Source: an uncultured Gammaproteobacteria bacterium (GTDB taxonomy: Bacteria; Patescibacteriota; Microgenomatia; Levybacterales; GWA1-39-11). From it: a stretch of 64,000 bases of DNA. Below, piece by piece: positions 2,421-63,367 of this stretch. Positions within the stretch are counted from its first letter, which is position 1; every line of letters starts with the position of its first letter. Where the stretch lies: assembly GCA_964409875.1 (NCBI GenBank), contig CAYPEN010000001.1, positions 134,637 to 198,636 on the forward strand. The letters are read 5' to 3'. The translations under genes and the position numbers were made by a program. Below the pieces are notes generated by a model, which worked only from the letters and a program-made list of their open reading frames with translations, made no database searches and was not told where the DNA came from.

Positions 2421-3002
2421 TCAACACCCAGTTGCGGCTCCCTGATAATATACTTTCAAAGTGCCTCCTGACCATTTACCGCCTGTTTGGGATCCTCCGG
2501 AGAATAACCCGATTTTCCATTTTTTATTAGTAAATCCATCAGCTGATGAAAGATTAATTGTGTATCTAGTTGAGGGTGTTTTGAATTGATCTGTTGCAAT
2601 AACTTTTGTAGTAGAACCTTCTTCTATTTCTATTGTCATATAGCCATTTTCGTCTCCTATTGCCTGTATTTTTCCTTCCTGTTGCGGTACTGTTTCTTTC
2701 AGGCAAAATGTAGGCGTATAGTTTATAATCCAAGTAAAGGGAGTAGTGGTCGGAGAAGGAGTCGTGCCGGAACCGGATGAGGTAGGGCCAGGAGTTGTGG
2801 AAGTAGTTGCTGGTGTGTCGGCTACAGGGAAGGGGGTGTCACCCGACATAAGTGTCCCAAAGCCTCCAACAAGAGACACTGCGAGAAGTACAACCATTAT
2901 GCAAATTATAAAATACACTGAGGATTGTCCGCGCTCTGAAGCAACAGAAGTTGGGAGTTGGGAGTTAGCAGATAAAGGGTTTTGAATAAAAATTCTTCGC
3001 AT
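2421..3002 (-). CDS. Membrane-anchored protein with a Thr/Pro/Ser-rich linker and a C-terminal globular domain
   Basis: 193 aa. It has a TM helix (VYFIICIMVVLLAVSLVGGFG), then TPATTSTTPGPTSSGSGTTPSPTTTP, then a beta-rich C-terminus ending in Cys. Confidence 0.5.
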   Translation of the reverse strand: MRRIFIQNPLSANSQLPTSVASERGQSSVYFIICIMVVLLAVSLVGGFGTLMSGDTPFPVADTPATTSTTPGPTSSGSGTTPSPTTTPFTWIINYTPTFCLKETVPQQEGKIQAIGDENGYMTIEIEEGSTTKVIATDQFKTPSTRYTINLSSADGFTNKKWKIGLFSGGSQTGGKWSGGTLKVYYQGAATGC

Positions 3003-11223: not shown

Positions 11224-12015
11224 CTATTTCTGTCCTTTTTGCCAAGGGGCGCGTTTCAGAATAGGAGCATACACGTCGTCATTCATGTCGATTCGAAGCT
11301 CCTTGATTTCATTCTCGGTAGTATCACGGTTGGTAAACTCAATGTTTGAAAGTTCTGAAATTATTGCCAGTGGGGTTTGCTCCTGGCCCTCTCCCATAGC
11401 GGTAACAGCTCCTGCTGCCAGTCCGTCTGCAACATTTGCTTTTGTGACGCGCATTATCCTGTCGAATAAATCAGGTTTTCCCATGTAATCGTTGAGCGCA
11501 TTAAAACCCGAATGAGCTATGCTAACCCCTGTTGTTCCCCAGCGAAGAGGAGTGGTTTTGCTGTCGGTTATGATAACGCCTATATTTTGCACGCCGAATT
11601 TTTCAACAAGATGTTGCCTTATTTCATTTGCCGTCTCATAAGGGTTTTTGGGCCACAGAATATAGTAGCCATTCCCATTCGACTCGTCGATTCCTGCCGT
11701 TGGAATGAGTAAGTTTTGCGTGATGGTCAAGTAAAACCCATATTGATTTTCATTCTTATCCAAAAACATTTCACTTTCTTCTTTGACCAATTTTTCTTTA
11801 TCCTCAATTTCAGTCGTGTGATTTATCTTTTTTATCCTTCCTTCAGCTATCGAAACAATTTTTGAAGTGACAACAAGAATGGAGTTTTCCTCCATCTTAT
11901 TTATATAGGTGTCTAAAATATTAAAAAGGTTAGTGTCCTTTTCCGTTATCTTGTGGGTCTTTAGTGGTGTAATTGTCATAGAGGCAATTGTACTATAATT
12001 TAGCCTCATTGACAA
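11224..12015 (-). CDS. F420-0:gamma-glutamyl ligase (CofE)-like fold protein
   Basis: 263 aa. The motifs LLIPTAGIDESNG and GVIITDSKTTPLRWGTTGVSIAHSGF resemble the CofE/F420_ligase family. This rests on recalled similarity and was not aligned. Confidence 0.5.
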   Translation of the reverse strand: MSMRLNYSTIASMTITPLKTHKITEKDTNLFNILDTYINKMEENSILVVTSKIVSIAEGRIKKINHTTEIEDKEKLVKEESEMFLDKNENQYGFYLTITQNLLIPTAGIDESNGNGYYILWPKNPYETANEIRQHLVEKFGVQNIGVIITDSKTTPLRWGTTGVSIAHSGFNALNDYMGKPDLFDRIMRVTKANVADGLAAGAVTAMGEGQEQTPLAIISELSNIEFTNRDTTENEIKELRIDMNDDVYAPILKRAPWQKGQK

Positions 12016-12042
12016 AAATAAAACTCTATTTATAATCGGATT

Positions 12043-13515
12043 ATGTCAGCTGAATTGTTATCTCTTCCGGATACGCCTCAAGGTCCTGATATTAATTACG
12101 ACACCTACCACACAGTTTACGAGTATCGCTATGCAGGTCAAAGCATGCGAAATATTTGGTCAGAAAACCATAAAACAGCTTTGATGCGTGAGGTATGGGT
12201 TGCTGTAGCGACTGCTCAAAACAGAGCGGGAATTGTAACAGATGCTGAGCTTGGTGATTTGATATTGCAGGAATATAATTTCGATTTCCCAACCATTTTA
12301 GACCGGGAGACAAACCCTGATAATCCACAATACCAGGGCCATGATATTTTGGCAGCAATTTCAGAATATGAAGATAGGGCGCAAACAGGTGGAGGAAAAA
12401 TTCATCAAGGAATGACTTCGGAAGACGTGTTGTCGAACGTTGAAGTGATGCAGATGAAAGAAGCTCTTGATCTTGTTGAGAACAGATTAGTGCAAGTACT
12501 TGAAGGATTCGGCATAAGAATTGAAGAATTTAAATCAACTCCGGTTACCGGTTTTACGCACATACAGGCAGGTGAGCCAATTACTTTAGGGTTAAGGCTT
12601 AGTAACTACGGACAGAATTTTCTGCCGGACTTAATGCATATCAGACGTCTAAAAGAAACGTTGCGGGCAAAAGGAATTAAGGGCCCTGTTGGGACATCGG
12701 CAGGTGTGAAGGAGTTGCTTGAGGGGACTAACATGAGCGTTGATGAGCACGAACAAATTGTTATGAATAAGCTTGGCCTAAAAGCGTATACGATAACCAA
12801 TCAAACATATCCAAGAAAACAATTTGCGGAAGTCATGAAAGTGCTGGCAGGGATCGGGACATCAGCCTTCCAATTTGCAAATAATATGCGATTATTACAG
12901 TCGTCACCATTCGATGAGATTTCAGAGCCGAGAAACAAATTAGATAAAGGCTCATCCGCAATGCCGCATAAAAGGAATCCGAGACATTCAGAAAACATCA
13001 TGTCGCTTGCGCGTGGATTGAAATATAAAGCTGCCGAAGCTGAAGAAATAGCTCAAGATGTACCACTCGAGCGGGGAATTGATGATTCAGGAGGCAAGCG
13101 TTCATTGTTACCAGAAGCTTTCCTGGCGGTCGATGAAATACTGAGCCGATGTAACCGGATTGTTAGAGGTTTTGATGCACATGAAGACTCACAGTGGAGT
13201 AATCTGGAAAAGTTCTCGCCCTATTTAGCAACGGAGCCGATTATGTTAACTGCGGCGGCACGTGGGGCAAATAGACAGGAGATGCATGAAATATTATTTG
13301 TTGTTTCGGGTGATGCCATAAAAGCAGTGAGAAGAGGAGAGCCGAATCCGATGAAGGAACTTGTTGCAGGAAAAGATGAAATTACGAAATACATTGCACC
13401 AGATGAGATGGATATTATTTTTAGAGATACATATCAAAAGACAGGAGAGTCACGCCAGTTCTGCGAAACGTTCCTTCAAGAAGAATTATACCCGGCAATA
13501 GGCAAAGTAGCCTAA
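12043..13515 (+). CDS. purB: Adenylosuccinate lyase / fumarate-lyase superfamily enzyme
   Basis: 490 aa. It carries the fumarate-lyase signature GSSAMPHKRNP, and its length and layout are consistent with PurB. Confidence 0.8.
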   Translation: MSAELLSLPDTPQGPDINYDTYHTVYEYRYAGQSMRNIWSENHKTALMREVWVAVATAQNRAGIVTDAELGDLILQEYNFDFPTILDRETNPDNPQYQGHDILAAISEYEDRAQTGGGKIHQGMTSEDVLSNVEVMQMKEALDLVENRLVQVLEGFGIRIEEFKSTPVTGFTHIQAGEPITLGLRLSNYGQNFLPDLMHIRRLKETLRAKGIKGPVGTSAGVKELLEGTNMSVDEHEQIVMNKLGLKAYTITNQTYPRKQFAEVMKVLAGIGTSAFQFANNMRLLQSSPFDEISEPRNKLDKGSSAMPHKRNPRHSENIMSLARGLKYKAAEAEEIAQDVPLERGIDDSGGKRSLLPEAFLAVDEILSRCNRIVRGFDAHEDSQWSNLEKFSPYLATEPIMLTAAARGANRQEMHEILFVVSGDAIKAVRRGEPNPMKELVAGKDEITKYIAPDEMDIIFRDTYQKTGESRQFCETFLQEELYPAIGKVA

Positions 13516-44823: not shown

Positions 44824-44954
44824 ACATTACGTTACCAGTTGTGTTTGACTAGTGTCAAGTGATTTGTATCACATACAAATTTTTAATATTTTGAGAGCTG
44901 CATACCACTTGACGAACGCAAAAAATTTCTTCATCATGAGAAAGAGAGGTTTTT

Positions 44955-46625
44955 TTGTTGTCTATGGATACTAACATGCTCGCGCAGTTATCAAAATTAA
45001 TCGAGGGAGACATTGCTACAGACTCTTCGACCCTTACAGAGCACAGTCATGATGCTTCACTTTTTGAAATGCGGCCTGAAGCGGTAGTTTTCCCAAAGAA
45101 CGAAAAGGATGTTGTAACGCTCGTTAAATTTGTGGCTGAGAACAAAAAAGAACATCCCCATTTGTCTCTTACTGGAAGAGCTGCCGGAACCGATATGGGA
45201 GGAGGCTCCATTAATGATTCCATCATTGTCGCATTTTCAAAATACTTCAACGCAAAACCTCAAATAGATACTGACAAAAGAACTGCGGTGGTTGAGCCAG
45301 GCGTCTTTTACCGCGATTTTGAAAAGGAAACGATTCGTGAAGGGCTTTTGTTCCCCTCATACCCAGCATCCCGTGGTTTATGCGCAATGGGTGGAATTGT
45401 GAACAACAATTCCGGTGGCGAAAAGTCCTTGCAATACGGAAAGACTGAACGGTATGTAAAAAGTGTAAAGGTAGTACTTCGCGATGGGAGTATTTGCGTC
45501 TTCAGAAAACTCACGATGGCAAGCCTTGAAAAGAAAATGGAACAGAAAGATTTGGAAGGGGAGATATACCGGAAAATGTTCAAGCTTATTAATGATAACT
45601 ATGATGAGATAATGGATGCAAAGCCGCAGGTAAGCAAAAATTCGGCAGGATATTTTTTGTGGAATGTTTATAACAAAGAAGAGGGAACCTTTGATTTGAC
45701 CCAATTGTGGGTGGGTGCGCAAGGAACATTGGGGTTACTTCTTGAGGCAGAAGTTTCACTTGTCCCAATTCATATGCATAGGGAAATGATGGTTATTTTT
45801 CTTCATGACTTGAAGCATTTGGGTGAAATCATCAACGCAGCACTCCCCTTAAAGCCTGAAAGCTTTGAGTCATACGATGATAATACGTTGAAATTAGCGC
45901 TTAAATATTTCCCCGAATTTGCAAAACAACTGGGAGCAAAGGGATTTGTCGGTGCAGGAATTGCATTTATGCCTGAATTTTTGATGGTAATGCGCGGTGG
46001 GCTTCCAAAATTAGTGTTACAGATAGACTTTACCGGGAATGACCCAGAAGAGTTGAAAGAGAAAATCGCAACACTTAAGGCAAAATTGGCGCCCCTTCAC
46101 CCACAAGCAAAAGTAGCCATTGAGTCACAAGAAGAGAAATACTGGCTCATACGGCGTGAAAGTTTTAACCTCCTTAGAAAAAAAATTAAAAACAAACACA
46201 CGGCTCCCTTTATCGACGATTTTGTCATAAAGCCCGAATATATAGCGGAAATTATTCCACAAGTGAACAAAATATTTGAAAAATACAGAAAGGACTTTAC
46301 CTACACTGTCGCAGGACACATTGGAGATGGTAATTTCCACATTATTCCGCTTGTTGATATCACAAAAAAGTCCGTCAGGAATGCAATCCCTGAAATTTCA
46401 AAACTCATATACGACCTTGTTCTGAAATATGGCGGTTCAATCACAGGGGAGCACAACGACGGGCTCATAAGAACTCCGTACTTGAGACAAATGTACGGAA
46501 GCCGTATTTATGAACTTTTTGAAGAGACGAAAAAGATATTCGACCCTGAGAACATTTTCAACCCCCGCAAGAAAGTCGGAGCGACAATGGACTATGCTAT
46601 GAAACACCTCCGGATGACTTGGTGA
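44955..46625 (+). CDS. FAD-linked oxidase (GlcD / D-lactate dehydrogenase family)
   Basis: 556 aa. It has a PCMH-type FAD-binding domain (LSLTGRAAGTDMGGGSINDSIIV) and a C-terminal FAD-oxidase domain. Confidence 0.75.
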   Translation: MLSMDTNMLAQLSKLIEGDIATDSSTLTEHSHDASLFEMRPEAVVFPKNEKDVVTLVKFVAENKKEHPHLSLTGRAAGTDMGGGSINDSIIVAFSKYFNAKPQIDTDKRTAVVEPGVFYRDFEKETIREGLLFPSYPASRGLCAMGGIVNNNSGGEKSLQYGKTERYVKSVKVVLRDGSICVFRKLTMASLEKKMEQKDLEGEIYRKMFKLINDNYDEIMDAKPQVSKNSAGYFLWNVYNKEEGTFDLTQLWVGAQGTLGLLLEAEVSLVPIHMHREMMVIFLHDLKHLGEIINAALPLKPESFESYDDNTLKLALKYFPEFAKQLGAKGFVGAGIAFMPEFLMVMRGGLPKLVLQIDFTGNDPEELKEKIATLKAKLAPLHPQAKVAIESQEEKYWLIRRESFNLLRKKIKNKHTAPFIDDFVIKPEYIAEIIPQVNKIFEKYRKDFTYTVAGHIGDGNFHIIPLVDITKKSVRNAIPEISKLIYDLVLKYGGSITGEHNDGLIRTPYLRQMYGSRIYELFEETKKIFDPENIFNPRKKVGATMDYAMKHLRMTW

Positions 46626-51386: not shown

Positions 51387-54300
51387 GTGCAAGAAGAAAA
51401 TCTATCTTCTCAACCAAACGTGCAGCCTTCCCCGGTTGTTTTAAGAGGTGTAAGTGTAGTGCAACGGATATTCTCCCGCATACCAAGGCCGGTTATTATT
51501 CTTGCAGCCATTGCTATCGGTATTCCTGCCCTTTTGTACGTTTTGAAAGGACCCTCAGGAGGTACCCCGACAAGAACAAAAAGTGAATTTGAACTCGTTG
51601 AAAGTGCGCCTTCCGATCAGCAGAATGCAACTCCGGTAATAGCCCGGCCAACATTTGTTTTTTCAAAAAAGATAGGCGTAAGCGAGAGGGAGCTGGAGAA
51701 GTATTTCACGATGGTGCCAAAAGTAGAAGGGAGTTGGCACATTGAGAAGAACGGACAGGTTGTGTACTTTACATCGGGTAAGAAAAAAGCAGGTAAATTT
51801 CCTCAGACATTTGACTATCAAACAGCATATTCTGTAACAATTGACAAACGGTTTCATTCCGAAAATGGAAAAGAGCTGGCCGGGGAAGAAAATATCACTT
51901 TTAGAACGCAGCAAAACCCCGAATTTTCACTGAAGGCTAATAAAAGCATACTTCCTGTTCCTGTTGGAGATACGATTGATATCGAAATTCAGGATTATGG
52001 ACTTCTTGACAAAAAGTACGCTAAGTCCATTCAGCAACAGACGGCAGAGCCCTACAAAGTCACACTTCAGAAAGCAACGAAAGACGAGTTACTCTCTTAT
52101 TTTATATACAAAAAGAATTCATATCTTGCGGTAAATATAATACCTGATACGCTTGTGCGACGGGCAGCGATAACAACAACCGGTCAATATATGGCCAAAG
52201 GACAGAACGGTTATTCAAAAGTGATACGTGTATCAAATCCTGCCTTTAAGGCACCAGGAATCTATTTTGTGACCTTCTCCAATAAATACGGACGCGATAG
52301 TCTTTTTGTAGTAATTTCAAAGCACGTTGCACAGGTTATCCATGATAACAAGCAAACGTTTGTTATGACAACTGACAGTAATACCAACAAAGCGGTAGGT
52401 GGGATAAAAGTCGAGTACTACAAAACACAAAATAAAGTTGCCTTGCTTGGAGTTAAATCGACAAGTGCAGAAGGAATTGCCCAGCAAGACAATTTCTCAG
52501 ACGACACAGATTTTGTTGTGACAAGCCGAGGGAATGATATTGCAGTAACATCTACGCGTGGATACAGAATGGGGTTAGCATCGGATAAGGAAAGTGAAGT
52601 TTTTTCGTACACCGATAGACCGGTTTACCGCCCTGGGGATACTGTTCATTATAAAGCGGTCATTCGGGTGAGAGACGGAAATGGAGATTTCAAAATTGAG
52701 AGAAAGAAGTATTACGTGAAGTATCAGAGCAGTTATGATGCATCGAAGGGGGATTACAAAGAGGTTGCAGTTGATGAGAACGGAACGCTGTCATTTGATA
52801 CGGTGGTGCCATTTTCTGAGAACAAGCCATATCCCGGTATATATTTAGCTTCAAAAAATACAAAAGGCGAATATCTGTCATTGGATACTTTGCAGCTTGC
52901 TGTCGAGTACTACAAAAAACCCGACATGGATATAAGTGTTAGTGCAAATGAAAAGGAATATATAAGCGGGGACACATCGCATATGACAGTTACAGGTAAA
53001 ACAAATTATGGTAAACCTTTGTCCGGCGTAAAATTTAGCTATCGGGTAATGTTAGTTGACTACCAGGAAGAAAAAGACAGGAATGACGAGAGAATAGAAA
53101 AAGATATTTATAGTAATTATTATGGAGGCGGGAAAGAACTGGCGAATGGTTCCTCAGAATTTGATAAGAACGGAAAAGCTAGCATAGAGTTTTCCACCAA
53201 ATTGCCTGACAGCTTTATACAAAGCCAGGTGGCACTCCTTGAAGTAACGCCTACTATCGGTGCAATTCCTTCTTTTGGAAAAATAGTACGCCTGATACAT
53301 CGCGGAGAGTTTGCGCTCTTTTTTGACGGTATTGAGGCAAATACTTCTACCGGGCTGAGCGGCTATACTGTTGCACTTGACCACAATAATCCGAGGAAGG
53401 CTGTCGGAAACATGAAGGGTAAGTTGACACTGACAAAAAAGGAATACTATTCCGATAATGGGCAAGTCATAGAGACAAGAGATATAGAGCTTGATGGAAA
53501 AGGACGGGCCGGTTTTGCATTCCGCAACCTGAAAGAGGGGAGCTATGAGGTAAAGTCGGAATTCTTGGACGCAAGAGGCAATAGGGTGACGGGGACACTG
53601 ATGACTTACGTAGGAGCTCCGGTTCAATTGAGCGGCACTACAAACGTTATAGGCGTTTCTTTTGATAAACCAAAATACAACGCAGGGGAAACGGCGCGGG
53701 CTACTGTCGTATCAAATTTTTTACTGGATGATGTGTATGTTGTGATAGCAGAGAACAAAGGAGGTGCGACACGGATTGTTTCTGTAGAGAAAAGAAGTGA
53801 AGAGGAGAGAACCAGCTCATTTACCATTTCAATTCCTGTTAGAAAGGAAACCGTTGGTAGTGTAGGAGTTTTGTTATATACGGTGGCAAAAGGTGAGGTA
53901 ATGATAGGCCAAAATTCATTCATTGTTGAAAGGAAAAATGATAAGCTGACGACAAATATAAGTTTTGATAAAAAGCGGTATACGCCGGGCGAAAAAGTAA
54001 CGGTGAAAATTACTACAAAAGACGCGTCGGGGAAAGGAGTCTCCGCTGATAATTCTCTATCGCTAATAGATGCGGCTCTCTTGCAACTTGGAAAACTCAA
54101 GACCGGGATTGTCGAGCAATTTACCACAAAAGACACTTATATTGCCCTCAGCCACTATGACTCGTTAACCGGCATATATGCTGAAGAAGTCGGTGGAGGC
54201 GGAGGCTGCTTTTTGGAAGGGACCCAAATACTGATGGGGGACGGAACGGCAAAGAATATTGAGGACATAAGAATAGGCGATATGATATCTACCAAGTTGT

Positions 54301-56840
54301 CTGAAACATCAAAGGAAATGATACGAAATACGGTGGAGAAGACATTTGCCCACACGGTTACCGAATACCTCCTTATAAATAACAGATTAAAAGTTACCCC
54401 CATTCACAGGATTTATCTGAATGGGCACTGGGCGGAAGCATCAGAGGCAAAAGTGGGGGATATGCTTCTGGATGTCTCTGGCGCCCAGGTTGAAATTACT
54501 TCCATAACGAAAAATATTGGAATTTTCAGGGTCTATAACCTGACGACAAATCCCTCACACACTTTCTTTGCCGATGGAATGTATGTGCATAACGAAAAGG
54601 GTCTTGACCCCAGGCAAAATTTTGTCGATACGTTGTACTGGAATCCTCACATAAAAACAGACAGTAATGGAGAGGCAACCGTTAGTTTTAAGCTTGCAGA
54701 CAATGTGACTACATTTACAGCTCAAGCATTCTCTAATACAAAAGATTCACTTTTCGGGGAAGGGACCGCAAGCATCGTAAGCTACAAAGACCTGACAATT
54801 ATCCCGTCACTCTCTGCCTTTTACTATGAGCACGACAAACCCGTAATTTCGGTTATCGCACAAAATTCTACAGGAAGTGATATGGATTTGACCATTGTTA
54901 GCGGAATAAAAGAGCTAAGTGGTGAGAACAAACAGGACATTCATGTGAAGGGAAATGACCTTGAGGTGATTGATGTGCCATTTGATTTGAGGGATTTGAC
55001 AAAGAATGCCACCTTCATTGTTGAGGCAAGAGATAGAAGCGGGAAGGTTGTTGATAGTGTTCTTATGAAAATTCCAATTTTACCTCAAGGGAATATCTCG
55101 GCACGCTGGGAATCTTTCGAGAATTCATATGACCATGTGTTCCAACCCGAATTTCCTTCGCTTGATGCAAACCGCATGGAGGTGTCAATAGTTCCCAATG
55201 CCGCAGCAAAGCTTGCACAGCCATATTATGGTATAAGTACCTATCTTTCTACTCAAACAGGGCAACAACTTTTTGCATACTCGTATATTTTGGCAAGGAC
55301 GAGGGACGGATTTATTGATCCTGCTTCATATAATTACGCCCAAGATGTGAATGAGTTCCGGGATGCAATCGAGACGCTATCCGAAGGAAGAGTTGAAAAT
55401 ACGTGGACGCAGTCTGAGTATAATAATTTTTATGGTGGTGATTCTTTCGAATCCGCCAACCTGTGGGTTGCCATGGGATTTGAAAAGGCTATTGAGAACA
55501 AAATGCTTGACGAAGTTACAAACGCACGGGAAATGGTGGATAAAACCAAAGTGTATTTTAAGGATTACGGCGGCATCAAACCTCCGCCTCCACCGCCATT
55601 TTACCCAATGAGCCCGACACCCGCTTTTTACCCGACACCGGTAGTATCACTAACGCCGACACCGGTAGCATCACTGACTCCGACACCTTCAACTACTTCT
55701 TCAGGTATTGTTTTTGCGCCACCGCCTCCGCCGCCCGTAGTATCCTTTCCACCTGCGCCTACGGTTCAACCATATTATCAACCATATCCTATGCCCCCGG
55801 TGACCCGGTACTATACCGATAATGAAAAATTGGTACGGACATTGTTGTACGGGCAGTCGTTTCCTGACGAGTTAGGAAGTAAATTTAATGAAACGCCGGA
55901 AGGTTTGGCCTCACAAATACTTTTAGGGAAAGAGAATTTGATGCAAAAGCTTCTGAGTCTTCGTATCACATCGGCATCAGACCGTTATATATGGAGCGGA
56001 TACACTACTGCATCGGAGGAATTGCCGGTTCTGGCAATTGTTGAAAAAGGAACGCTTGAGGATGCCGAAAAAGCCATACGTGGAATATCATTTACAGAGG
56101 AGAGTGCCCAGCCGTTAACCCTGTACGCGGCGGTCAAATATGCAGAAAGGAAAAATATTACCATTTCAAAGCCAACTTTTAAGGTGTTAGTTAACGGTGA
56201 AAATGCTTTTGAATTCCCATCGAAGGAGAATGATAATAATGCCTATCAAAATTTTACACAAGCTCTCTCAACCAGAAGCAGCAAAGACGGGAAATTACAT
56301 CTTGAAGTAAAGTCGAGTGGAGGACTTCCCATTTACGGAACGGTAAGTGAATTTATCTATACTGGAGCCGGACACACTGTTGACAGCGACGATTCTTACA
56401 AAGCAGACATACAGCTTGTTAGGAGTTTTCGTGATATTGAGAGCGGCCAGACAGTCAGTTCTATCGGGAAAGGAAAGACCGGTGTGGTAGTGTTCTCATC
56501 TGAACCCCAACGTCTTCTGAAGACCGGTGATGCGTCTTATGCCCTCACGTATCTTATGGAAGACATGATAGCCCCCAACAATTTTTACCTGGATCAAAGC
56601 CAATCATATTACGACCCGCAATTTCAAAGTGTTTTGAAGAAGCTTTTTCCATCAAATGACAACTCCCAACCCGCTTATGAACTCCCCGGAGAATTTACTG
56701 ACCAGACCGTATTTTATAATAGAACCCGTTCAAGGGTAAATCTTCCCTACGTTGTTTTTAGCACGTCAGATGGGACTTATTACCGGCCTAAGACGAGCAT
56801 AGTGTTCCCCATTTTAGGTGTTGTTGCAAACGAAAAGTAG
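51387..56840 (+). CDS. Giant membrane-anchored alpha-2-macroglobulin-like protein (MG-domain array) with a Hint/mini-intein domain at the bait-region position and a Pro-rich segment
   Basis: 1817 aa with a GTG start and an N-terminal TM helix (PVIILAAIAIGIPALLYVL). It has repeated A2M_N/MG-type domain starts (VFSYTDRPVYRPGDTVHYKAVIR; VSFDKPKYNAGETARATVVS; ISFDKKRYTPGEKVTVKIT). The A2M post-bait domain signature RQNFVDTLYWNPHIKTDSNGEATVSFKLADNVTTFTAQAFS is present. A TED-like segment LAQPYYGISTY stands where the A2M family has MPYGCGEQ, so the thioester Cys is absent. There is a proline-rich block (PPPPPPFYPMSPTPAFYPTPVVSLTPTP...APPPPPPVV). Confidence 0.75.
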   Translation: MQEENLSSQPNVQPSPVVLRGVSVVQRIFSRIPRPVIILAAIAIGIPALLYVLKGPSGGTPTRTKSEFELVESAPSDQQNATPVIARPTFVFSKKIGVSERELEKYFTMVPKVEGSWHIEKNGQVVYFTSGKKKAGKFPQTFDYQTAYSVTIDKRFHSENGKELAGEENITFRTQQNPEFSLKANKSILPVPVGDTIDIEIQDYGLLDKKYAKSIQQQTAEPYKVTLQKATKDELLSYFIYKKNSYLAVNIIPDTLVRRAAITTTGQYMAKGQNGYSKVIRVSNPAFKAPGIYFVTFSNKYGRDSLFVVISKHVAQVIHDNKQTFVMTTDSNTNKAVGGIKVEYYKTQNKVALLGVKSTSAEGIAQQDNFSDDTDFVVTSRGNDIAVTSTRGYRMGLASDKESEVFSYTDRPVYRPGDTVHYKAVIRVRDGNGDFKIERKKYYVKYQSSYDASKGDYKEVAVDENGTLSFDTVVPFSENKPYPGIYLASKNTKGEYLSLDTLQLAVEYYKKPDMDISVSANEKEYISGDTSHMTVTGKTNYGKPLSGVKFSYRVMLVDYQEEKDRNDERIEKDIYSNYYGGGKELANGSSEFDKNGKASIEFSTKLPDSFIQSQVALLEVTPTIGAIPSFGKIVRLIHRGEFALFFDGIEANTSTGLSGYTVALDHNNPRKAVGNMKGKLTLTKKEYYSDNGQVIETRDIELDGKGRAGFAFRNLKEGSYEVKSEFLDARGNRVTGTLMTYVGAPVQLSGTTNVIGVSFDKPKYNAGETARATVVSNFLLDDVYVVIAENKGGATRIVSVEKRSEEERTSSFTISIPVRKETVGSVGVLLYTVAKGEVMIGQNSFIVERKNDKLTTNISFDKKRYTPGEKVTVKITTKDASGKGVSADNSLSLIDAALLQLGKLKTGIVEQFTTKDTYIALSHYDSLTGIYAEEVGGGGGCFLEGTQILMGDGTAKNIEDIRIGDMISTKLSETSKEMIRNTVEKTFAHTVTEYLLINNRLKVTPIHRIYLNGHWAEASEAKVGDMLLDVSGAQVEITSITKNIGIFRVYNLTTNPSHTFFADGMYVHNEKGLDPRQNFVDTLYWNPHIKTDSNGEATVSFKLADNVTTFTAQAFSNTKDSLFGEGTASIVSYKDLTIIPSLSAFYYEHDKPVISVIAQNSTGSDMDLTIVSGIKELSGENKQDIHVKGNDLEVIDVPFDLRDLTKNATFIVEARDRSGKVVDSVLMKIPILPQGNISARWESFENSYDHVFQPEFPSLDANRMEVSIVPNAAAKLAQPYYGISTYLSTQTGQQLFAYSYILARTRDGFIDPASYNYAQDVNEFRDAIETLSEGRVENTWTQSEYNNFYGGDSFESANLWVAMGFEKAIENKMLDEVTNAREMVDKTKVYFKDYGGIKPPPPPPFYPMSPTPAFYPTPVVSLTPTPVASLTPTPSTTSSGIVFAPPPPPPVVSFPPAPTVQPYYQPYPMPPVTRYYTDNEKLVRTLLYGQSFPDELGSKFNETPEGLASQILLGKENLMQKLLSLRITSASDRYIWSGYTTASEELPVLAIVEKGTLEDAEKAIRGISFTEESAQPLTLYAAVKYAERKNITISKPTFKVLVNGENAFEFPSKENDNNAYQNFTQALSTRSSKDGKLHLEVKSSGGLPIYGTVSEFIYTGAGHTVDSDDSYKADIQLVRSFRDIESGQTVSSIGKGKTGVVVFSSEPQRLLKTGDASYALTYLMEDMIAPNNFYLDQSQSYYDPQFQSVLKKLFPSNDNSQPAYELPGEFTDQTVFYNRTRSRVNLPYVVFSTSDGTYYRPKTSIVFPILGVVANEK
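54207..54593 (+). other. Hint (intein-like / BIL-type) domain embedded in the A2M-like protein
   Basis: 129 aa run from CFLEGTQILMGDG (block A, Cys1) through TPIHRIY (block B, TxxH) to VYNLTTNPSHTFFADGMYVHN (blocks F/G, terminal His-Asn). The following residue is Glu, not Cys/Ser/Thr, so this is not a canonical splicing intein. It is preceded by a GGGGG linker. Confidence 0.8.
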
Positions 56841-57454: not shown

Positions 57455-58180
57455 ATGTCTGTTGCAACTCAGGAAGCATTTGCTACTACCGAGCCGCACG
57501 CGCAAAGCACCGTCGCAAAGCTCAATTGGTTGAGGGCATCGGTATTGGGTGCCAATGATGGAATTGTTTCAATTGCCGGTCTTGTTTTGGGGGTAGCGGG
57601 AGCAACAAGCTCTTCAACGGTGATTTTAACGGCAGGAGTAGCCGGCATTATTGCAGGTGCAATTTCTATGGCAGCAGGCGAATATGTTTCGGTAAGTTCC
57701 TCCAGAGACACTGAGCATGCGTTACTCAAAAAAGAGCGGGATGAGTTAAAAAACTTTCCGGACGCGGAATTATTGGAACTGATTTCATTGTACGAGAGAA
57801 AGGGCTTGAGCAAAAAAACCGCAACAACGGTTGCTAGAGAGCTTACAAAAAAAGATGCGTTTGCTGCTCATGCGGATATAGAGCTTGGCATTGACCCCGA
57901 CAACCTTACCAATCCCTGGCATGCGGCTTTTGCATCAGCTGCGGCTTTTTTGGCCGGAGCATTCATACCACTTGTTGCGATATTACTTCCCCCACAGGCA
58001 ATGAAAGTCCCATTTGCTTTTGGTGCAGTCGTTGTTGCGCTTGGAGCAACCGGTTTTGTCAGCGCAAAAATAGGCGGAGCCAATACACTGAAGGCTATGA
58101 CTAGGGTCGTTCTCGGCGGGGTTTTGGCAATGATAGTTACATATTCAATAGGAAGATTGTTCCATGTGAGTGGAGTGTAG
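57455..58180 (+). CDS. VIT1/CCC1-family iron/manganese transporter
   Basis: 241 aa. LNWLRASVLGANDGIVSIAGLVLGVAGA is the VIT-family signature, and the layout is 5 TM with a cytoplasmic helical loop. Confidence 0.8.
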   Translation: MSVATQEAFATTEPHAQSTVAKLNWLRASVLGANDGIVSIAGLVLGVAGATSSSTVILTAGVAGIIAGAISMAAGEYVSVSSSRDTEHALLKKERDELKNFPDAELLELISLYERKGLSKKTATTVARELTKKDAFAAHADIELGIDPDNLTNPWHAAFASAAAFLAGAFIPLVAILLPPQAMKVPFAFGAVVVALGATGFVSAKIGGANTLKAMTRVVLGGVLAMIVTYSIGRLFHVSGV

Positions 58181-58259: not shown

Positions 58260-58385
58260 ATGCCTGATAAAAATTTTGCAGAGAACATGCTGGAATCAAT
58301 TGGAATAGGAGATAATGACCATGAAAAAAAGAAAGGAAGAAAAGGGGGAAGGTCGAGTGCATCCAAAACCAAAAAGAAAAAATAA
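58260..58385 (+). CDS. Small lysine-rich protein (41 aa)
   Basis: RBS gagaggaggtggagaaa ATG. MPDKNFAENMLESIGIGDNDHEKKKGRKGGRSSASKTKKKK. Confidence 0.3.
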   Translation: MPDKNFAENMLESIGIGDNDHEKKKGRKGGRSSASKTKKKK

Positions 58386-58427
58386 ATTTAATGCCTTGCA
58401 ATAGTCATATTTCTTTGTTTTAATAAA

Positions 58428-58562
58428 TACTGCATCAAGAGAGTTTCAAGAAATTGAAACCGGCAACCGTAAATTTTTCGGTGCCAAAGCGAGAGCAGAT
58501 GCGTCCTGAGCAAGTCGAAGGAAAAAATGTCTATAAGACCTCTCGCTTTCGGGAGGTTTTTT
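58428..58562 (+). ncRNA. Putative SAM riboswitch (SAM-I-clan-like core, minimal P2 and no P4) with an intrinsic terminator, in the metK leader
   Basis: The P1 5' arm is GCATC, followed by J1/2 AAGAGAG (58437-58443). A short P2 hairpin is GTTTCAAgaaatTGAAAC. P3 is GGCAACC...GGTGCCAA (58462-58488), matching the SAM-I P3/J3-4 core. The P1 3' arm is GATGC (58499-58503). A terminator, CCTCTCGctttCGGGAGG+TTTTTT (58538-58562), ends 1 nt before the metK ATG. AGCGAGAG (58489-58496) is complementary to CTCTCGCT in the terminator 5' arm, so it can act as an antiterminator. Recall-based with no covariance model. Confidence 0.45.
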
Positions 58563-58563
58563 A

Positions 58564-59679
58564 ATGGCAAAAAAGAGTCTTTTTACATCAGAATCAGTAT
58601 GTTCAGGGCATCCTGACAAAATTTGCGACAGGATAAGTGATTCTATTGTGGATGCTGCTATGTCAGAGGACCCGCATTCGAGGTGTGGCATCGAAACAGT
58701 CGCCGGGGCAAACCAGGTCTGCCTTTTCGGAGAGATAAAAACTTCGGCTAAAATCGATTACGAAAAAGTGGTAAGAGATACGATTCTGGAGTTAGGCTAC
58801 ACAGAGCCATCATGGGGTTTTTCAACAGAATCCGCTTTTTCAAATGATATCCATGAGCAGTCGCCTGAGATTGCAATGGGAGTAGACAATGACGGCGCAG
58901 GTGACCAGGGGATGATGTTCGGGTACGCGTGCACGGAAACGCCAGAGCTTATGCCTATCCCAATACGCATGGCACACGCGTTAACCCAACGGATAGATGA
59001 AGTTAGAGCCGGAAAAAAACTTAAATGGTTGCGGCCTGATGGGAAAGCACAAGTAACTGTCAGATATGAGAATGGAAAGCCGGTTGCTGTAGAAAAATTG
59101 GTCGCGGCTGTTGCACATGATGAGAAAGTTGATGCTATTGATGTCAGGACTGGAGTTATAAGAGAAATTTTTGAGCCCGTATTAAAAAGGTATAAGTTGG
59201 ATTTGCCAAAAGAGGGAAACATAACAGTTAACGGGACCGGCCTTTGGCATATTCCCGGTCCCGAGTCTGACGCCGGACTAACAGGCAGAAAAATTGTTGT
59301 TGATACATACGGAGGGTATGCTCGGGTTGGGGGCGGCGCATTTTCAGGAAAAGACCCGACAAAGGTCGATAGAAGCGGCGCGTATGCTGCCCGTTTTATC
59401 GCAAAAAACATTGTGGCTTCAGGCCTTGCTACAAAATGCGAAGTGGGACTTGCCTATGTTATAGGAAAAGCCCGTCCCTTAATGCAAACAATTGAAACAT
59501 TCGGGACGGAGGCGGTAAGCGAGAAAGCGTTACACGCATTTAAAGACAAGTTGATTGATACGTCTGTCAGGGGAATTATCGAGCGGTTGAGTTTGGCAAG
59601 ACCAATATACAAAGCTACCTCCTCATATGGCCACTTTGGACGCGAAGAATTCCCGTGGGAGAAGATAGTAGAGGGGTAA
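58564..59679 (+). CDS. metK: S-adenosylmethionine synthetase
   Basis: 371 aa. The N-terminus FTSESVCSGHPDKICDRISDSIVDA carries the MetK signature, and GGGAFSGKDPTKVDRSGAYAARFIAKNIVASGLA is the MetK signature 2 region. Confidence 0.9.
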   Translation: MAKKSLFTSESVCSGHPDKICDRISDSIVDAAMSEDPHSRCGIETVAGANQVCLFGEIKTSAKIDYEKVVRDTILELGYTEPSWGFSTESAFSNDIHEQSPEIAMGVDNDGAGDQGMMFGYACTETPELMPIPIRMAHALTQRIDEVRAGKKLKWLRPDGKAQVTVRYENGKPVAVEKLVAAVAHDEKVDAIDVRTGVIREIFEPVLKRYKLDLPKEGNITVNGTGLWHIPGPESDAGLTGRKIVVDTYGGYARVGGGAFSGKDPTKVDRSGAYAARFIAKNIVASGLATKCEVGLAYVIGKARPLMQTIETFGTEAVSEKALHAFKDKLIDTSVRGIIERLSLARPIYKATSSYGHFGREEFPWEKIVEG

Positions 59680-61036: not shown

Positions 61037-61085
61037 CCCAGGCTCAAAAAGGCTTGAAAAGTATCCTATATTCGGTTACAATCCG
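61037..61085 (+). promoter_or_regulatory. Consensus sigma70-like promoter cassette, copy A (TTGAAA-17-TACAAT), 6 nt upstream of the racemase ATG
   Basis: ccaggctcaaaaaggcTTGAAAagtatcctatattcggtTACAATccg, with -35 at 61054-59 and -10 at 61077-82. The ATG is at 61089, so the transcript is leaderless. Confidence 0.6.
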
Positions 61086-61088
61086 AGT

Positions 61089-61784
61089 ATGGAACGGGAG
61101 AAAACTCTTGGTGTCCTGGGAGGATTGGGACCGGAGACAACGAGCCATTTTAATTTGGAGGTTACTAATAAGTATAAAGCGTATGATGCGTCAAAACGCC
61201 CACAGATACTGTCTTGGTATACCGGAATGGACCATCAATTAGAGGAAGATTTTGTCGAACGGGGTCTGCGTGGTGAAGAGTATATTCCATACCTTGTTGA
61301 CGGAGCCAGAAGGCTTGAAGCGGGAGGAGCAGATTTTATCGCTATTCCATGTAATACGGTTCATGTTTTCATCGATGACATCAGGAGTTCTGTATCTATT
61401 CCGGTACTTAGCATTATTGAAGAATCGGAAAAATATTTACAAGAACACAATATTAATGCAGTAGGAATTCTTGCAACTCCAGTTACCGTTTCAAGTAGAC
61501 TTTATCATGAGCGATTAGAAGAAAATGGAATAGAGGTAGTGAATCCTACCAATCAAGAGCAAGAGGTGCTTGGACAGATAATATCACGGTTGGTAAACTC
61601 GAAAGCAACGGAGAGTGACAGAGAGTTTGTCGAAGGTGTTATTAATAATTTGTTAAAAACACAAGTAAGTGATATATTGCTCGCTTGTACGGATTTCCAA
61701 TTAATAATAAAAAAGCGGGAAAATATACATGATACCATGGATATTCTTGCGCAAAGTGCAGCACAAAAACTAGCGGAGAAATAA
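61089..61784 (+). CDS. Asp/Glu/hydantoin racemase family protein (aspartate racemase-like)
   Basis: 231 aa. GVLGGLGPETTSHF is the N-terminal racemase motif and IAIPCNTVHVF the second catalytic Cys region. Confidence 0.7.
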   Translation: MEREKTLGVLGGLGPETTSHFNLEVTNKYKAYDASKRPQILSWYTGMDHQLEEDFVERGLRGEEYIPYLVDGARRLEAGGADFIAIPCNTVHVFIDDIRSSVSIPVLSIIEESEKYLQEHNINAVGILATPVTVSSRLYHERLEENGIEVVNPTNQEQEVLGQIISRLVNSKATESDREFVEGVINNLLKTQVSDILLACTDFQLIIKKRENIHDTMDILAQSAAQKLAEK

Positions 61785-61788
61785 GCCA

Positions 61789-61838
61789 CCAGGCTAAAAA
61801 AGGTTTGAAAAGTATCCTATATTCGGTTACAATCCGGC
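61789..61838 (+). promoter_or_regulatory. Promoter cassette copy B (46/48 identical to copy A)
   Basis: ccaggctaaaaaaggtTTGAAAagtatcctatattcggtTACAATccg, with -35 at 61805-10 and -10 at 61828-33. The ATG is at 61842. Confidence 0.6.
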
Positions 61839-61841
61839 GGT

Positions 61842-62555
61842 ATGGAAAATAGACCGTACAACGAACATCTTTCAGTAATTCCATTTAAGGATGCTGTTGT
61901 TCCGCTTGAAGTAGGTTTGGATCTTCTTGCTAAAAAATCAGTTACAGCTATTTCTCAAAATCTTGATCTTTGCAAGCCGTATTTTTATCCCGACTATGAT
62001 CAGGAGAGTTTTGATGCAATAATTTCGGAGGCGAAGGGCGAATATTCTACATTTAGAGGTGGTTTTGGTTTTACAGAGGAGAATATTGCCTATATTTACT
62101 CACATATGGGCGATGTGCAGTATGAATCTGTTATTGACAATATTTTGGAAAATTACGTAGCACCTACTATTTGGAAGACCTTTCCCAATGTTAACCCAAA
62201 TAGCATAGGGTTAGGAATGATACTTGACGTTGTGCGGCTGATAAATCCGGAAATTGCATCATTTAGAGAAGGAATAGGAGTTTTAGCAAAGAGCATGAAA
62301 AAGAGGAACGGTTACTTACTCAATAATATGGAGCTGGGTATCATGGTAGGAGAGGTGGTAAGGAAAGAGAATACGGATTCTCTACCATTCGATATTTTTG
62401 CAGATTCGATGGGAGCAGCTCAGTTGGCAGCAAACTATATATCGCATTTAAATGAAGCAGAGCTAAGAGACTTTAGAATCGGTACCCGTTTTGATGGGGT
62501 AGAATGGCAGAAAATGATTCAGGGATTCTCTCCTGACACATACCATTCTCAATAA
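61842..62555 (+). CDS. Hypothetical protein, paralog 1 of a duplicated pair
   Basis: 237 aa. LDVVRLINPEIASFREGIGVLAKSMKKRNGYLL...DIFADSMGAAQLAANYISH is shared with 62663..63367. Confidence 0.55.
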   Translation: MENRPYNEHLSVIPFKDAVVPLEVGLDLLAKKSVTAISQNLDLCKPYFYPDYDQESFDAIISEAKGEYSTFRGGFGFTEENIAYIYSHMGDVQYESVIDNILENYVAPTIWKTFPNVNPNSIGLGMILDVVRLINPEIASFREGIGVLAKSMKKRNGYLLNNMELGIMVGEVVRKENTDSLPFDIFADSMGAAQLAANYISHLNEAELRDFRIGTRFDGVEWQKMIQGFSPDTYHSQ

Positions 62556-62625
62556 TTGGTTTTGTGAAGAGCTTGCCATTTTTGCTAAATAATATGTAAC
62601 ATGTATGTCTCAGCCTCAAGTGGAG

Positions 62626-62656
62626 TTGAAAAGTATCCTATATTGTGGTAAAATCC
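62626..62656 (+). promoter_or_regulatory. Promoter cassette copy C (core TTGAAA-17-TAAAAT)
   Basis: gTTGAAAagtatcctatattgtggTAAAATcc, with -35 at 62626-31 and -10 at 62649-54. The ATG is at 62663. Confidence 0.5.
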
Positions 62657-62662
62657 AGTTTT

Positions 62663-63367
62663 ATGGAAAGCTTGCGAGGCTACGAAGCATTAACCACACT
62701 TCCTTTTAGAGAGATTGCAATACCTGAGGAGGAAGCATTGCCGAAATTGAACGGAAAATTTCAGGAAGTTGTTTCTCAGAGCGTTGACATTTTTATCCCC
62801 ATGATTGGTCCCGAAACTCCTCATTATGAGGCTGTCGTTGAGCATTATAAGCAATTCGTTGAAAAGGCAAAGGAAGTTACGACCGTAGGTCTTGGTATGG
62901 GGGACGTTGATGTCGAAAAAATATATCAGGAATGGGGTAATAATACTTATCTTGATAACATGATAAGAGTTGTACGCCATGTCGGCATGGAGTCGAGAAC
63001 GAAAACTCCCGAAGGAGCAGATAATCCCGCATCGGGAAGAATTGGATTTTTTCTTGATATGCTGCGGCTTATATCCCCAGATGTTGCAACTTTTGACAAT
63101 GGGGTAAAAGTATTTGCAAGTGCCATGAGAAGAACCGGTTATATACTGGAGCCCTTTGCATTGGGAGCAATGGTAGATGATGTAATTCTCAGAAAGGGGA
63201 CAGCTGATTTTCCGTATGATTTTTATTCAGACAGCAAGGGTGCGGCAATATTTGCTGCGAGCTACATCCATCACGCAACGACCGCCGAAAGAATGGCATT
63301 TCAGCAGGGTCTTGATATAACCTTGGAAGAATTACAAAGGCTTACGACCGGCCAATCTACGAATTAG
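62663..63367 (+). CDS. Hypothetical protein, paralog 2 of a duplicated pair
   Basis: LDMLRLISPDVATFDNGVKVFASAMRRTGYIL...DFYSDSKGAAIFAASYIHH is the shared segment. The ATG at 62663, 8 nt after the -10, is preferred over the track's GTG at 62645. Confidence 0.5.
   Translation: MESLRGYEALTTLPFREIAIPEEEALPKLNGKFQEVVSQSVDIFIPMIGPETPHYEAVVEHYKQFVEKAKEVTTVGLGMGDVDVEKIYQEWGNNTYLDNMIRVVRHVGMESRTKTPEGADNPASGRIGFFLDMLRLISPDVATFDNGVKVFASAMRRTGYILEPFALGAMVDDVILRKGTADFPYDFYSDSKGAAIFAASYIHHATTAERMAFQQGLDITLEELQRLTTGQSTN

Follow-up and report, generated by a model that had tools for sequence, protein, structure and literature searches.

A predicted SAM-I/IV-class riboswitch in the leader of a metK gene

The leader of the metK gene described here (approximately positions 58429-58563) is very probably an OFF switch of the SAM-I/IV class. 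It lies in a window of 64,000 nucleotides, which is the whole stretch of DNA that was analyzed, and all features are on the plus strand unless indicated otherwise. As modelled, the switch most likely acts mainly through transcription termination, with masking of the ribosome site as a second layer. Family membership, helix covariation, the antiterminator pairing as a conserved and covarying feature and the energies of the competing folds were computed, whereas we infer that SAM is bound, which way it regulates the gene and how control is divided between transcription and translation. The gene itself (58564-59679; ORF list and Pfam) encodes an S-adenosylmethionine synthetase of 371 amino acids with all three S-AdoMet synthetase Pfam domains (N, M and C; E-values of 1e-34 to 1e-59). 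Its homologs are named methionine adenosyltransferase, and homologs are named Candidatus Saccharimonadales. The leader immediately precedes metK, in sense orientation and on the same strand. A SAM-clan riboswitch with a terminator and antiterminator upstream of metK had been proposed in a first-pass annotation of the sequence, and this is borne out by the Rfam match, a 10-nt antiterminator complement and the Pfam domains of MetK.

When the whole window was compared with 4227 Rfam families, RF01725 (SAM-I/IV) matched positions 58427-58537 over model positions 1-99 of 99, with an E-value of 1.5e-4 and a score of 47.1 bits, only 6 bits above the gathering score of 41.1. This was the sole match above the gathering score in the 64-kb window. 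Among the SAM-clan families, RF01725 alone is listed for the leader region, where one lower-scoring overlapping clan match, of a family not shown, was suppressed; no separate match of RF00162 (SAM-I, also known as S-box) is listed for the window. The first-pass annotation had named SAM-I/IV among several alternatives and suggested a covariance-model search, in which this is the family that scores above the Rfam curated threshold. A search with the composite core pattern gave one match in the window and none in 100 dinucleotide shuffles, and the leader fold is more stable than its shuffles (z = -3.0).

In the model of the aptamer, P1, P2, P3 and a minimal P4 meet in a four-way junction, and P5 comes after it. 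P1 is formed by (U)GCAUC at 58431-58436 and GAUGC(G) at 58498-58503, as seen in the Rfam alignment and the minimum free energy (MFE) fold, and is followed by J1/2 (AAGA, 58437-58440). P3 (58462-58485) consists of GGC-AA-CCG, the loop UAAAUUUUU and CGG-U-GCC, with 100% of the cells paired in relatives. For SAM-I, the residues lying no more than 5 Å from the bound SAM have been listed (PMC6890682), and the nucleotides at all 13 of the 13 SAM-proximal positions are kept: AUC at 58434-58436 in P1 (SAM-I residues 6-8), GA at 58439-58440 in J1/2 (11-12), CAAC at 58464-58467 and UGC at 58482-58484 in P3 (44-47 and 57-59) and A58499 in the 3' strand of P1 (87). These columns are invariant in 68-69 relatives, and by homology the leader is predicted to bind SAM. 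The motifs listed earlier, namely the P1 arms GCATC and GATGC (58432-58436 and 58498-58502), AAGAGAG (58437-58443), GGCAACC (58462-58468) and GGTGCCAA (58480-58487), are all present in the window sequence where they had been placed.

P2 (58441-58461) is a plain hairpin in which G58441 pairs with C58461, A58442 is bulged and GUUUCAA (58443-58449) pairs with UUGAAAC (58454-58460) below a GAAA loop. The 7-bp stem is perfect (inverted repeat I3, 7 nt, 100% complementary) and has no internal loop and no kink-turn, and for PK-1 no complement of the GAAA loop is found in the AAA junction 3' of P3. A plain P2 without kink-turn or P2 pseudoknot defines SAM-I/IV (PMC2864571; Zhang 2019, PMC6890682), which was described as the 'SAM-I/SAM-IV variant' (Weinberg 2010, PMC2864571). 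The plain P2 that had been noted earlier as unusual is a defining trait of the class.

The junction between P3 and P1 (58486-58497) contains a minimal P4 in the MFE fold, consisting of G58489-C58496 and C58490-G58495 closed by a GAGA tetraloop, so that the earlier reading of the leader as lacking P4 is probably wrong (58489-58496). P4 belongs to the published SAM-I/IV structure (PMC6890682; original family alignment). The flanking A58488 and A58497 are mismatched, where relatives have a U-A pair; the closest relatives have 3 bp, and counterparts are UGC-GAGA-GCA in L081 and L084 and UCC-GAGA-GGA in L087 and L194. Across 69 sequences the P4 pairs covary and are 88.6% paired. Taken alone, the 2-bp P4 of the window is not significant (shuffle p = 0.15) and is the weakest P4 of all relatives. 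In 10 family members a 5-nt junction without P4 is found, and the three of these that were scanned score 38.7-45.8 bits as SAM-I/IV. Downstream of P1, the Rfam model and the MFE fold place P5 at 58504-58522, with UCCU (58504-58507) paired to AGGA (58519-58522) around an 11-nt loop; its 4 modelled pairs all covary, with 94.3% paired, and L081 has CCUC/GGGG at the same place.

Fourteen distinct sequences of the same leader type precede metK; nine come from low-GC metagenome contigs, and five from close relatives together with the patescibacterial metagenome-assembled genome (MAG) L001. Their RF01725 scores range from 32.5 to 57 bits, mostly near the gathering score; the L001 leader has no RF01725 match, and the L159 leader scores best as SAM-I, at 31.6 bits, far below the threshold of 44.4. 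When 70 related sequences were placed on the P1-P5 model, 95.9% of the cells paired; the figure was 71.6% for shuffles and 31-48% when the partners were slid. Of the 27 modelled pairs, 20 change on both sides, and all five of the five helices covary, which answers the earlier suggestion to look for covariation in related leaders. The alignment used (A3) was fitted to the covariance model, which biases pair counts towards the model, and the slid-partner control addresses this bias. A MAFFT alignment of the 14 leaders (A1) placed P2, P4 and P5 out of register and was set aside in favor of A3. In P1, the A-U, U-A and C-G pairs are invariant in 68 related sequences and the outer pairs covary, and in P2 all 8 of the 8 modelled pairs covary, with a compensatory change to GCUUC/GAAGC in L084. 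In the closest relatives, whose MetK proteins are 85-86% identical, the leader is retained and P2, P5 and the antiterminator show compensatory changes, indicating purifying selection on the structure.

In the window RNA, the P3 loop probably pairs with the A-rich tail in a candidate pseudoknot (PK-2), as suggested by complementarity. The candidate 3' strand, AAAAAU at 58523-58528, would pair with AUUUUU (58473-58478) in the P3 loop (inverted repeat I4, 6 nt, 100% complementary), which runs against the earlier statement that a pseudoknot partner is missing. This strand starts right after P5, at the site of the family pseudoknot in the original family alignment. Complementarity of at least 5 bp between the P3 loop and the tail is found family-wide in 46% of the sequences versus 12-14% in controls (Mann-Whitney p = 2.4e-4). 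The six A-U pairs of the window form a duplex of -0.7 kcal/mol that is not significant alone (shuffle p = 0.08), and the comparison of self with cross energies in the patescibacterial subgroup alone is also not significant (p = 0.15). A first parse of P5 and PK-2 was discarded, as it chose long-range stems running into the terminator. The minimal P4 (GC-GAGA-GC), P5 3' of P1 and the candidate PK-2 (AUUUUU:AAAAAU) are elements that the first-pass annotation had overlooked.

Judged from its sequence, the metK leader is an ordinary member of the known class SAM-I/IV, and the new reduced variant of a small-genome lineage that had been considered for it is unnecessary. It resembles RF01725 in the SAM-clan core, in the plain P2, which has neither an internal loop nor a pseudoknot at its tip, in the P5 after P1 and, as far as the candidate elements go, in a junction P4 and in the potential pairing of the P3 loop with the 3' tail (original family alignment), and it is likewise tied to a SAM metabolism gene. 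It differs in its P4 of only 2 bp with a GAGA loop, in a pseudoknot that would consist of six A-U pairs and in its platform, an intrinsic terminator that is merged with ribosome site and start codon. In the env87 crystal structure of Trausch et al. from 2014, the pseudoknot itself is reportedly part of the switch in the crystallized SAM-I/IV member. SAM-I/IV was first described from 'several phyla, marine', whereas the host here is a Saccharimonadia-like patescibacterium, as inferred only from the names of MetK homologs. With SAM-I (RF00162) the leader shares identical ligand-contact nucleotides, a four-way junction in which P4, here a candidate of 2 bp, lies between P3 and P1, a predicted termination mechanism whose antiterminator takes in the 3' portion of the aptamer, and metK as a typical target. 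Unlike in SAM-I, its P2 lacks a kink-turn and the P2 loop forms no PK-1 with J3/4, while P5 and the candidate PK-2 are additional. With SAM-IV (RF00634) it shares the SAM-clan core and, on the 3' side, a P5 with the candidate PK-2 (PMC6890682); SAM-IV has a split P2a/P2b with PK-1 and no P4 (PMC6890682), whereas P2 of the window RNA is undivided and has no partner for PK-1, and a small candidate P4 is present.

Upstream of the aptamer, a promoter-like element is present at 58396-58424 in the sequence, with TTGCAA (58396-58401), a 17-nt spacer and TTTAAT (58419-58424). CTTGCAA and TTTAATA are kept at equal spacing in L081, L084, L088 and L089. From this element, transcription would begin near 58429-58432, at the 5' border of P1. 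A consensus promoter scan does not list the element at 58396-58424; its rule demands an A at position 2 of the -10 motif, so this is not evidence of absence. Downstream, the MFE fold contains an intrinsic terminator at 58537-58562, with CCUCUCG (58539-58545) paired to CGGGAGG (58550-58556), the loop CUUU (58546-58549) and U6 (58557-58562). The hairpin alone has -11.8 kcal/mol and 7 core pairs, five of which are G-C. A terminator scan does not list the hairpin at 58537-58562, which is not evidence of absence either; our guess is that it was probably missed owing to A-U pairs that prolong the stem into the U tract. A role of the hairpin as the terminator of an upstream small ORF is unlikely, as the conserved promoter-like element lies between them. 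The minus-strand ORFs at 58388-58570 and 58446-58691 run antisense to the leader, a conserved structured element, and by position alone were taken as coding noise.

The sequence AGCGAGAG (58488-58495) is complementary to CTCTCGCT (58540-58547), and the perfect complement extends to 10 nt (I2), in which AAAGCGAGAG (58486-58495), overlapping P4 and the junction, matches CTCTCGCTTT (58540-58549) in the 5' arm and loop of the terminator. At most 1 of 301 junction shuffles reached such a 10-nt match (p of about 0.003). Designs of this kind with compensatory changes recur in patescibacterial metK leaders of other samples, and are found in L081/L084, L105/L151, L113, L159, L194 and L087. In L081/L084 the pairing is UGCGAGAG:CUCUCGCA, in which an A-to-U change is matched by a U-to-A change; it is ACUUAAGAGG:CCUCUUAAGU in L105/L151, UUGAGAGG:CCUCUCAA in L113 and CGAGAGG:CCUCUCG in L159/L194. 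The 3' arm of the terminator wholly contains an SD-like GGGAGG (58551-58556), 7 nt before the AUG, and the U6 is followed by A58563 and the metK ATG at 58564, so that the U tract ends 1 nt before the start codon. An SD-like motif precedes only 8 of the 49 long ORFs in the window (background 12%), so GGGAGG stands out. It would function as an SD; as most genes of this genome appear leaderless and SD-less, it may not act as one. A purine-rich 3' arm, a U tract and an AUG within 3 nt are found in the leaders of 13 relatives.

In the proposed mechanism, bound SAM would lock P1 and the junction, and AAAGCGAGAG would be unable to invade downstream; the terminator (58539-58556 with U6) would then form, and RNA polymerase would stop just before the AUG, with GGGAGG buried in the hairpin of any read-through RNA. 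At low SAM, 58486-58495 would pair with the 5' arm and loop of the terminator (58540-58549), a pairing that is topologically incompatible with P1 and would block the terminator, leaving the ribosome site and AUG free for MetK to be made. When the transcript ends at 58551, the MFE structure is the antiterminator fold (-33.1 kcal/mol versus -30.4 kcal/mol with P1 enforced), so that a few kcal/mol gained by ligand binding could decide the outcome. At equilibrium without ligand, the aptamer plus terminator fold (-40.4 to -40.7 kcal/mol) beats the antiterminator fold (-33.9 kcal/mol), indicating that the ON state needs kinetic, co-transcriptional control. Read-through mRNA may also refold and mask the ribosome site.

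These energies bear on an improbable alternative, in which the same SAM-I/IV aptamer acts purely on translation: the hairpin at 58539-58556 would hide GGGAGG, and the U tract would serve as an A/U-rich spacer in front of the AUG, without any termination. The SD-like motif, wholly within the 3' arm and at an ideal 7-nt spacing, agrees with this, as do L109, L196 and L201, which have no terminator and in which the PK-2 3' strand directly adjoins the AUG in a translational layout. L089-L092, which lack the aptamer, retain a similar hairpin-U7-AUG leader; the hairpin may, on this comparison, have a SAM-independent role. However, the hairpin with U6-U7 is a canonical intrinsic terminator in most relatives, and it is favored at equilibrium with or without aptamer stabilization, so that an equilibrium translational switch would be stuck OFF and the antiterminator would be useful only kinetically, during transcription. 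Moreover, in L087 and L001 a distance of 55-110 nt separates the terminator from the start codon downstream of it, which it therefore cannot mask.

A decaying aptamer that has lost ligand binding, with the leader left as a constitutive attenuator or stability element, would fit the weakness of the 2-bp P4 and of the all-A-U PK-2, as well as the loss of the aptamer altogether before some Saccharimonadia metK genes (L089-L094). It is nevertheless very unlikely, since the SAM-proximal nucleotides and helices are all intact, the closest relatives maintain the leader by compensatory changes and the three scanned members without P4 still score as SAM-I/IV. That the aptamer senses a ligand other than SAM, for example S-adenosylhomocysteine or a further SAM analogue, is hardly credible. 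Nothing specific favors it beyond the reduced metabolism of the lineage, an epibiont; the nucleotides of the binding site match those of SAM-I and SAM-I/IV exactly, P1 contains the invariant A-U and U-A pairs that read the sulfonium charge in the SAM-I structure, and metK is a classic SAM-repressed gene.

The class, its structure and its association with metK have been known since 2010-2014, and the standard Rfam model detects this copy, so the SAM-I/IV switch has little consequence for riboswitch biology. In the collection of papers searched, no mention of SAM-I/IV riboswitches in Saccharimonadia or Patescibacteria was found, and the leaders described here document such predicted riboswitches in an under-described lineage. 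The platform is unusually compact, with the antiterminator in P4, the SD-like site within the terminator hairpin and only 1 nt between the U tract and the AUG, and across the group this layout is conserved and shows covariation. It is conceivable, though rather doubtful, that the patescibacterial metK leaders form a distinct SAM-I/IV sub-lineage, characterized by the P4/junction antiterminator, the terminator 3' arm as SD and the U tract as the spacer between SD and AUG. If so, one very compact element would control transcription and translation together, and the SD in the terminator 3' arm would be among the few SD sites of a mostly leaderless genome. About half of the patescibacterial metK leaders score below the Rfam gathering score, so such a sub-lineage, if real, would be under-annotated. 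Inducible gene-control tools are being sought for the phylum (PMC11665869), and the leader is a candidate native SAM-responsive control element for it.

In the contig scan for MetK, the matches listed had at most 60% identity and were mostly from Firmicutes with SAM-I-like cores, with L001 as the useful exception. A second design, in which the P1-5'/J1/2 strand AUCAAGAG would serve as the antiterminator, is found in L126, L178 and L210.

The element upstream of metK is a member of the SAM-I/IV riboswitch class. The whole window was scanned against Rfam 15 with gathering scores as the threshold, and SAM-I/IV (RF01725) was the sole match above it, at 58427-58537 (+) (47.1 bits vs a threshold of 41.1, model positions 1-99); the standard Rfam model suffices to detect the element. 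The cmsearch check proposed in the first-pass annotation thus singles out one of its candidate classes, and the published traits of this class fit point by point. The SAM-I/SAM-IV variant has been described as having the core common to SAM-I and SAM-IV and a P2 without an internal loop or P2-tip pseudoknot (PK-1) (Weinberg et al. 2010, PMC2864571, Additional file 1), and the accompanying alignment annotates P1, P2 and P3, with one hairpin separating P3 from the 3' strand of P1 and another past P1, and has the P3 loop pair with the 3' tail in a pseudoknot (PK-2). The SAM-I/IV crystal structure likewise has an undivided P2, no PK-1 and a P4 helix (Zhang et al. 2019, PMC6890682). Since the RNA matches these definitions, the points called unusual in the first-pass annotation, such as the plain P2 without a kink-turn, are instead hallmarks of the class. 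A SAM-I identity was rejected, as SAM-I has a kink-turn and PK-1 and this RNA has neither, and a SAM-IV identity was rejected because, unlike SAM-IV, the RNA has an undivided P2 and a P4. Compared with typical SAM-I/IV members, P4 is minimal, the candidate PK-2 is all A-U and the terminator is fused to the Shine-Dalgarno (SD) sequence and the AUG. The element is already known in kind, a routine riboswitch with clean support and an expression platform that is neat and compact; no mention of SAM riboswitches in Patescibacteria or Saccharibacteria was found in the literature searched, a limited search that is no proof of novelty.

Each motif listed for 58428-58566 in the first-pass annotation was found in its place on the forward strand: the P1 arms GCATC (58432-58436) and GATGC (58498-58502), AAGAGAG (58437-58443), GGCAACC (58462-58468), GGTGCCAA (58480-58487), a G+C-rich hairpin (58539-58545/58550-58556) and a T6 tract (58557-58562) followed by a single A. 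The metK ORF (+, 371 aa, ATG at 58564) encodes S-adenosylmethionine synthetase, with the Pfam N, M and C domains of this enzyme (E 1e-34 to 1e-59). The window has a single occurrence of the composite core pattern, and 100 shuffles have none, the leader folds more stably than its own shuffles (z = -3.0), and its 10-nt antiterminator match is reached by at most 1 of 301 junction shuffles; on these pattern, folding and junction statistics, a chance origin of the leader motifs is excluded.

Together with the following U6, the hairpin at 58539-58556 makes a canonical intrinsic terminator, which folds at -11.8 kcal/mol in isolation. The junction tract is complementary to the 5' arm of the terminator as proposed, but over a longer stretch than had been given, since AAAGCGAGAG (58486-58495) matches CTCTCGCTTT (58540-58549) over 10 nt at 100%. 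This antiterminator pairing, which includes the terminator loop, crosses P1 (58432-58436/58498-58502), and the two are therefore mutually exclusive. The proposed terminator/antiterminator switch is supported, as the alternative pairing is perfect and is kept in related metK loci by differing sequences (antiterminator:terminator 5' arm): UGCGAGAG:CUCUCGCA in L081/L084 (8 nt; relative to the window, A-to-U is matched by U-to-A), ACUUAAGAGG:CCUCUUAAGU in L105/L151 (10 nt), UUGAGAGG:CCUCUCAA in L113 (8 nt), CGAGAGG:CCUCUCG in L159 and L194 (7 nt) and GAGAGG:CCUCUC in L087 (6 nt). A second antiterminator design is found in L126, L178 and L210, where the complement (6-8 nt) of the 5' arm and loop of the terminator lies in the P1-5'/J1/2 strand, AUCAAGAG(AG); L178 and L210 have a 5-nt junction without P4, and L126 has a 15-nt junction with P4.

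For a transcript that ends at 58551, the minimum free energy (MFE) structure is the antiterminator fold (-33.1 vs -30.4 kcal/mol with P1 enforced); with the 3' arm included, aptamer plus terminator reaches -40.4 vs -33.9 kcal/mol for the antiterminator. These computed energies fit a kinetic switch: because the antiterminator lead at 58551 is small and is reversed once the 3' arm is made, a ligand stabilising P1, P4 and PK-2 by a few kcal/mol during transcription could decide the outcome, and high SAM would lead to repression of metK. The terminator 3' arm, GGGAGG, is SD-like and 7 nt upstream of the AUG, and a single nt separates the U tract from the AUG; a purine-rich 3' arm, U tract and AUG within 3 nt recur in the leaders of 13 relatives. 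Owing to this position of GGGAGG close to the AUG, the terminator hairpin would also mask the ribosome site in read-through RNA, and we infer that control is split between transcription and translation. A purely translational switch using the same aptamer is unlikely, as at equilibrium its energies would keep it OFF at all times, and the distance from terminator to start codon is 55-110 nt in L087 and L001 (a patescibacterial MAG).

The closest MetK proteins are 77-87% identical, and several are named Candidatus Saccharimonadales, which makes a Saccharimonadia (Patescibacteria) genome the most likely origin of the window. Loci L081-L086 (MetK identity 85-86%) have the same leader as the window, with compensatory changes in P2 (GUUUC/GAAAC to GCUUC/GAAGC), P5 (UCCU/AGGA to CCUC/GGGG) and P4 (three pairs, UGC-GAGA-GCA). 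That the aptamer has decayed is unlikely in view of these changes and of the intact core. Among other Saccharimonadia relatives, the aptamer is present in L087 and L088 and absent in L089-L094. In the metagenome contigs that were scanned, the core pattern was found at 120 loci, and 15 of them (9 distinct leaders) are on low-GC contigs with metK directly downstream. Most relatives score 37.8-57 bits with RF01725, on both sides of the 41.1 threshold, and L088 scores 32.5; no relative among those scored reaches the threshold of the SAM-I or SAM-IV model. Seventy sequences were aligned with a covariance model of the window, L081 and L084, with the P1-P5 structure specified by hand, and 95.9% of cells are standard pairs; shuffles give 71.6%, and slid partners 31-48%. 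Being fitted to the model, the alignment favours the modelled structure; the comparison with slid partners speaks for a real signal. Both sides change in 20 of the 27 pairs, and covariation extends to every one of the five helices, with 88.6% of P4 cells and 94.3% of P5 cells paired. In the aptamer-less metK loci L089-L092 (about 1150-1203), a short leader with a promoter-like TTGCAA...TTTAAT continues into a hairpin UCUCC-UACUAA-GGAGA (5 bp), U7 and the AUG, a riboswitch-free module that may be a vestige or have a SAM-independent role.

P4 had been reported as missing; a reduced form, GC-GAGA-GC, is present at 58489-58496 (+) in the MFE fold. This 2-bp stem alone is not significant (shuffle p = 0.15); of the 82 distinct junctions with 8 nt or more, half give a hairpin with p ≤ 0.05. 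P5 (UCCU/AGGA, 58504-58522, +) is found in both the Rfam alignment and the MFE fold. Of the supposed lack of a pseudoknot partner, only the absence of PK-1 stands, as the class definition has it; directly after P5, AAAAAU (58523-58528, +) is complementary to AUUUUU (58473-58478, +), a candidate PK-2. Across the family, 46% of 90 sequences vs 12-14% in controls have a P3 loop and a 20-nt tail that can form at least five Watson-Crick pairs, using 30 different sequences, and by duplex energy a loop and tail from one sequence pair better than a loop and tail from different sequences (p = 2.4e-4). For the patescibacterial subgroup alone, the energy signal does not reach significance (p = 0.15), and the window helix is weak (-0.7 kcal/mol); PK-2 in this RNA is therefore only probable by homology. 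The A6 tail (58522-58527), the would-be PK-2 3' strand, forms an inverted repeat with the perfectly complementary terminator U6 (58557-58562) and could in principle pair with it when PK-2 is unformed.

In SAM-I, 13 nucleotides lie within 5 Å of SAM: residues 6-8, 11-12, 44-47, 57-59 and 87 (PMC6890682). All 13 positions are kept in the window RNA (AUC, GA, CAAC, UGC and A), which is expected from its sequence to bind SAM. The residues were mapped through the SAM-I sequence of the T. tengcongensis metF aptamer. A ligand other than SAM is unlikely, the contact nucleotides being identical.

Most mRNAs of the host genome seem, judged from upstream motifs, to be leaderless. Of the 49 long ORFs in the window, 30 have a TANNNT hexamer ending 4-13 nt upstream of the ATG (background 14%) and only 8 an SD-like motif (background 12%). 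Since most ORFs look leaderless and few have SD-like motifs, the long structured metK leader with its strong SD-like motif is an exception in this genome. In leaderless-type genes, the -10-like hexamer is often TGnTAnAAT with TTGACA ~17 nt upstream; examples are at 12043, 17401, 20272, 48694, 61089, 61842 and 62663 (+) and at 3002, 5259, 11177 and 26802 (-). Three of these (61089, 61842 and 62663) are tandem ORFs of 231-237 aa at 61050-63367 (+), each preceded by the near-identical GAAAAGTATCCTATATT(C/G)(G/T)GGT(T/A)A(C/A)AATCC; they have the look of a paralogous array in which the promoters are duplicated too.

At 44925-44966 (+), GAGAGG and then T7 occur 8 nt upstream of the ATG (44964) of a FAD-linked oxidase, resembling the metK terminator/SD module in its 3' half, and no convincing hairpin or Rfam match was found there; in L087, the riboswitch-metK unit is closely preceded by a FAD-linked oxidase gene sharing both Pfam domains. 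L113 is a low-GC contig with a SAM-I/IV-metK leader much like that of the window; its T-box-leader-like match at 11942-12142 (-) (71.6 bits, E 1.5e-13, below the gathering score of 93) may be a divergent T-box. Between a VIT1-family gene (57455-58180) and the metK promoter lies a small lysine-rich ORF (58261-58385, +; 41 aa from the ATG at 58261, ending in KKKGRKGGRSSASKTKKKK), and a 40-aa gene is called at this position in L081 and L084. Further upstream, 51387-56840 (+) encodes a 1817-aa alpha-2-macroglobulin-like protein with MG2, A2M_BRD and A2M domains, in which a HINT/intein-like domain (residues ~940-1069; PT-HINT, Vint, Hom_end_hint) sits between the bait-region and A2M domains.
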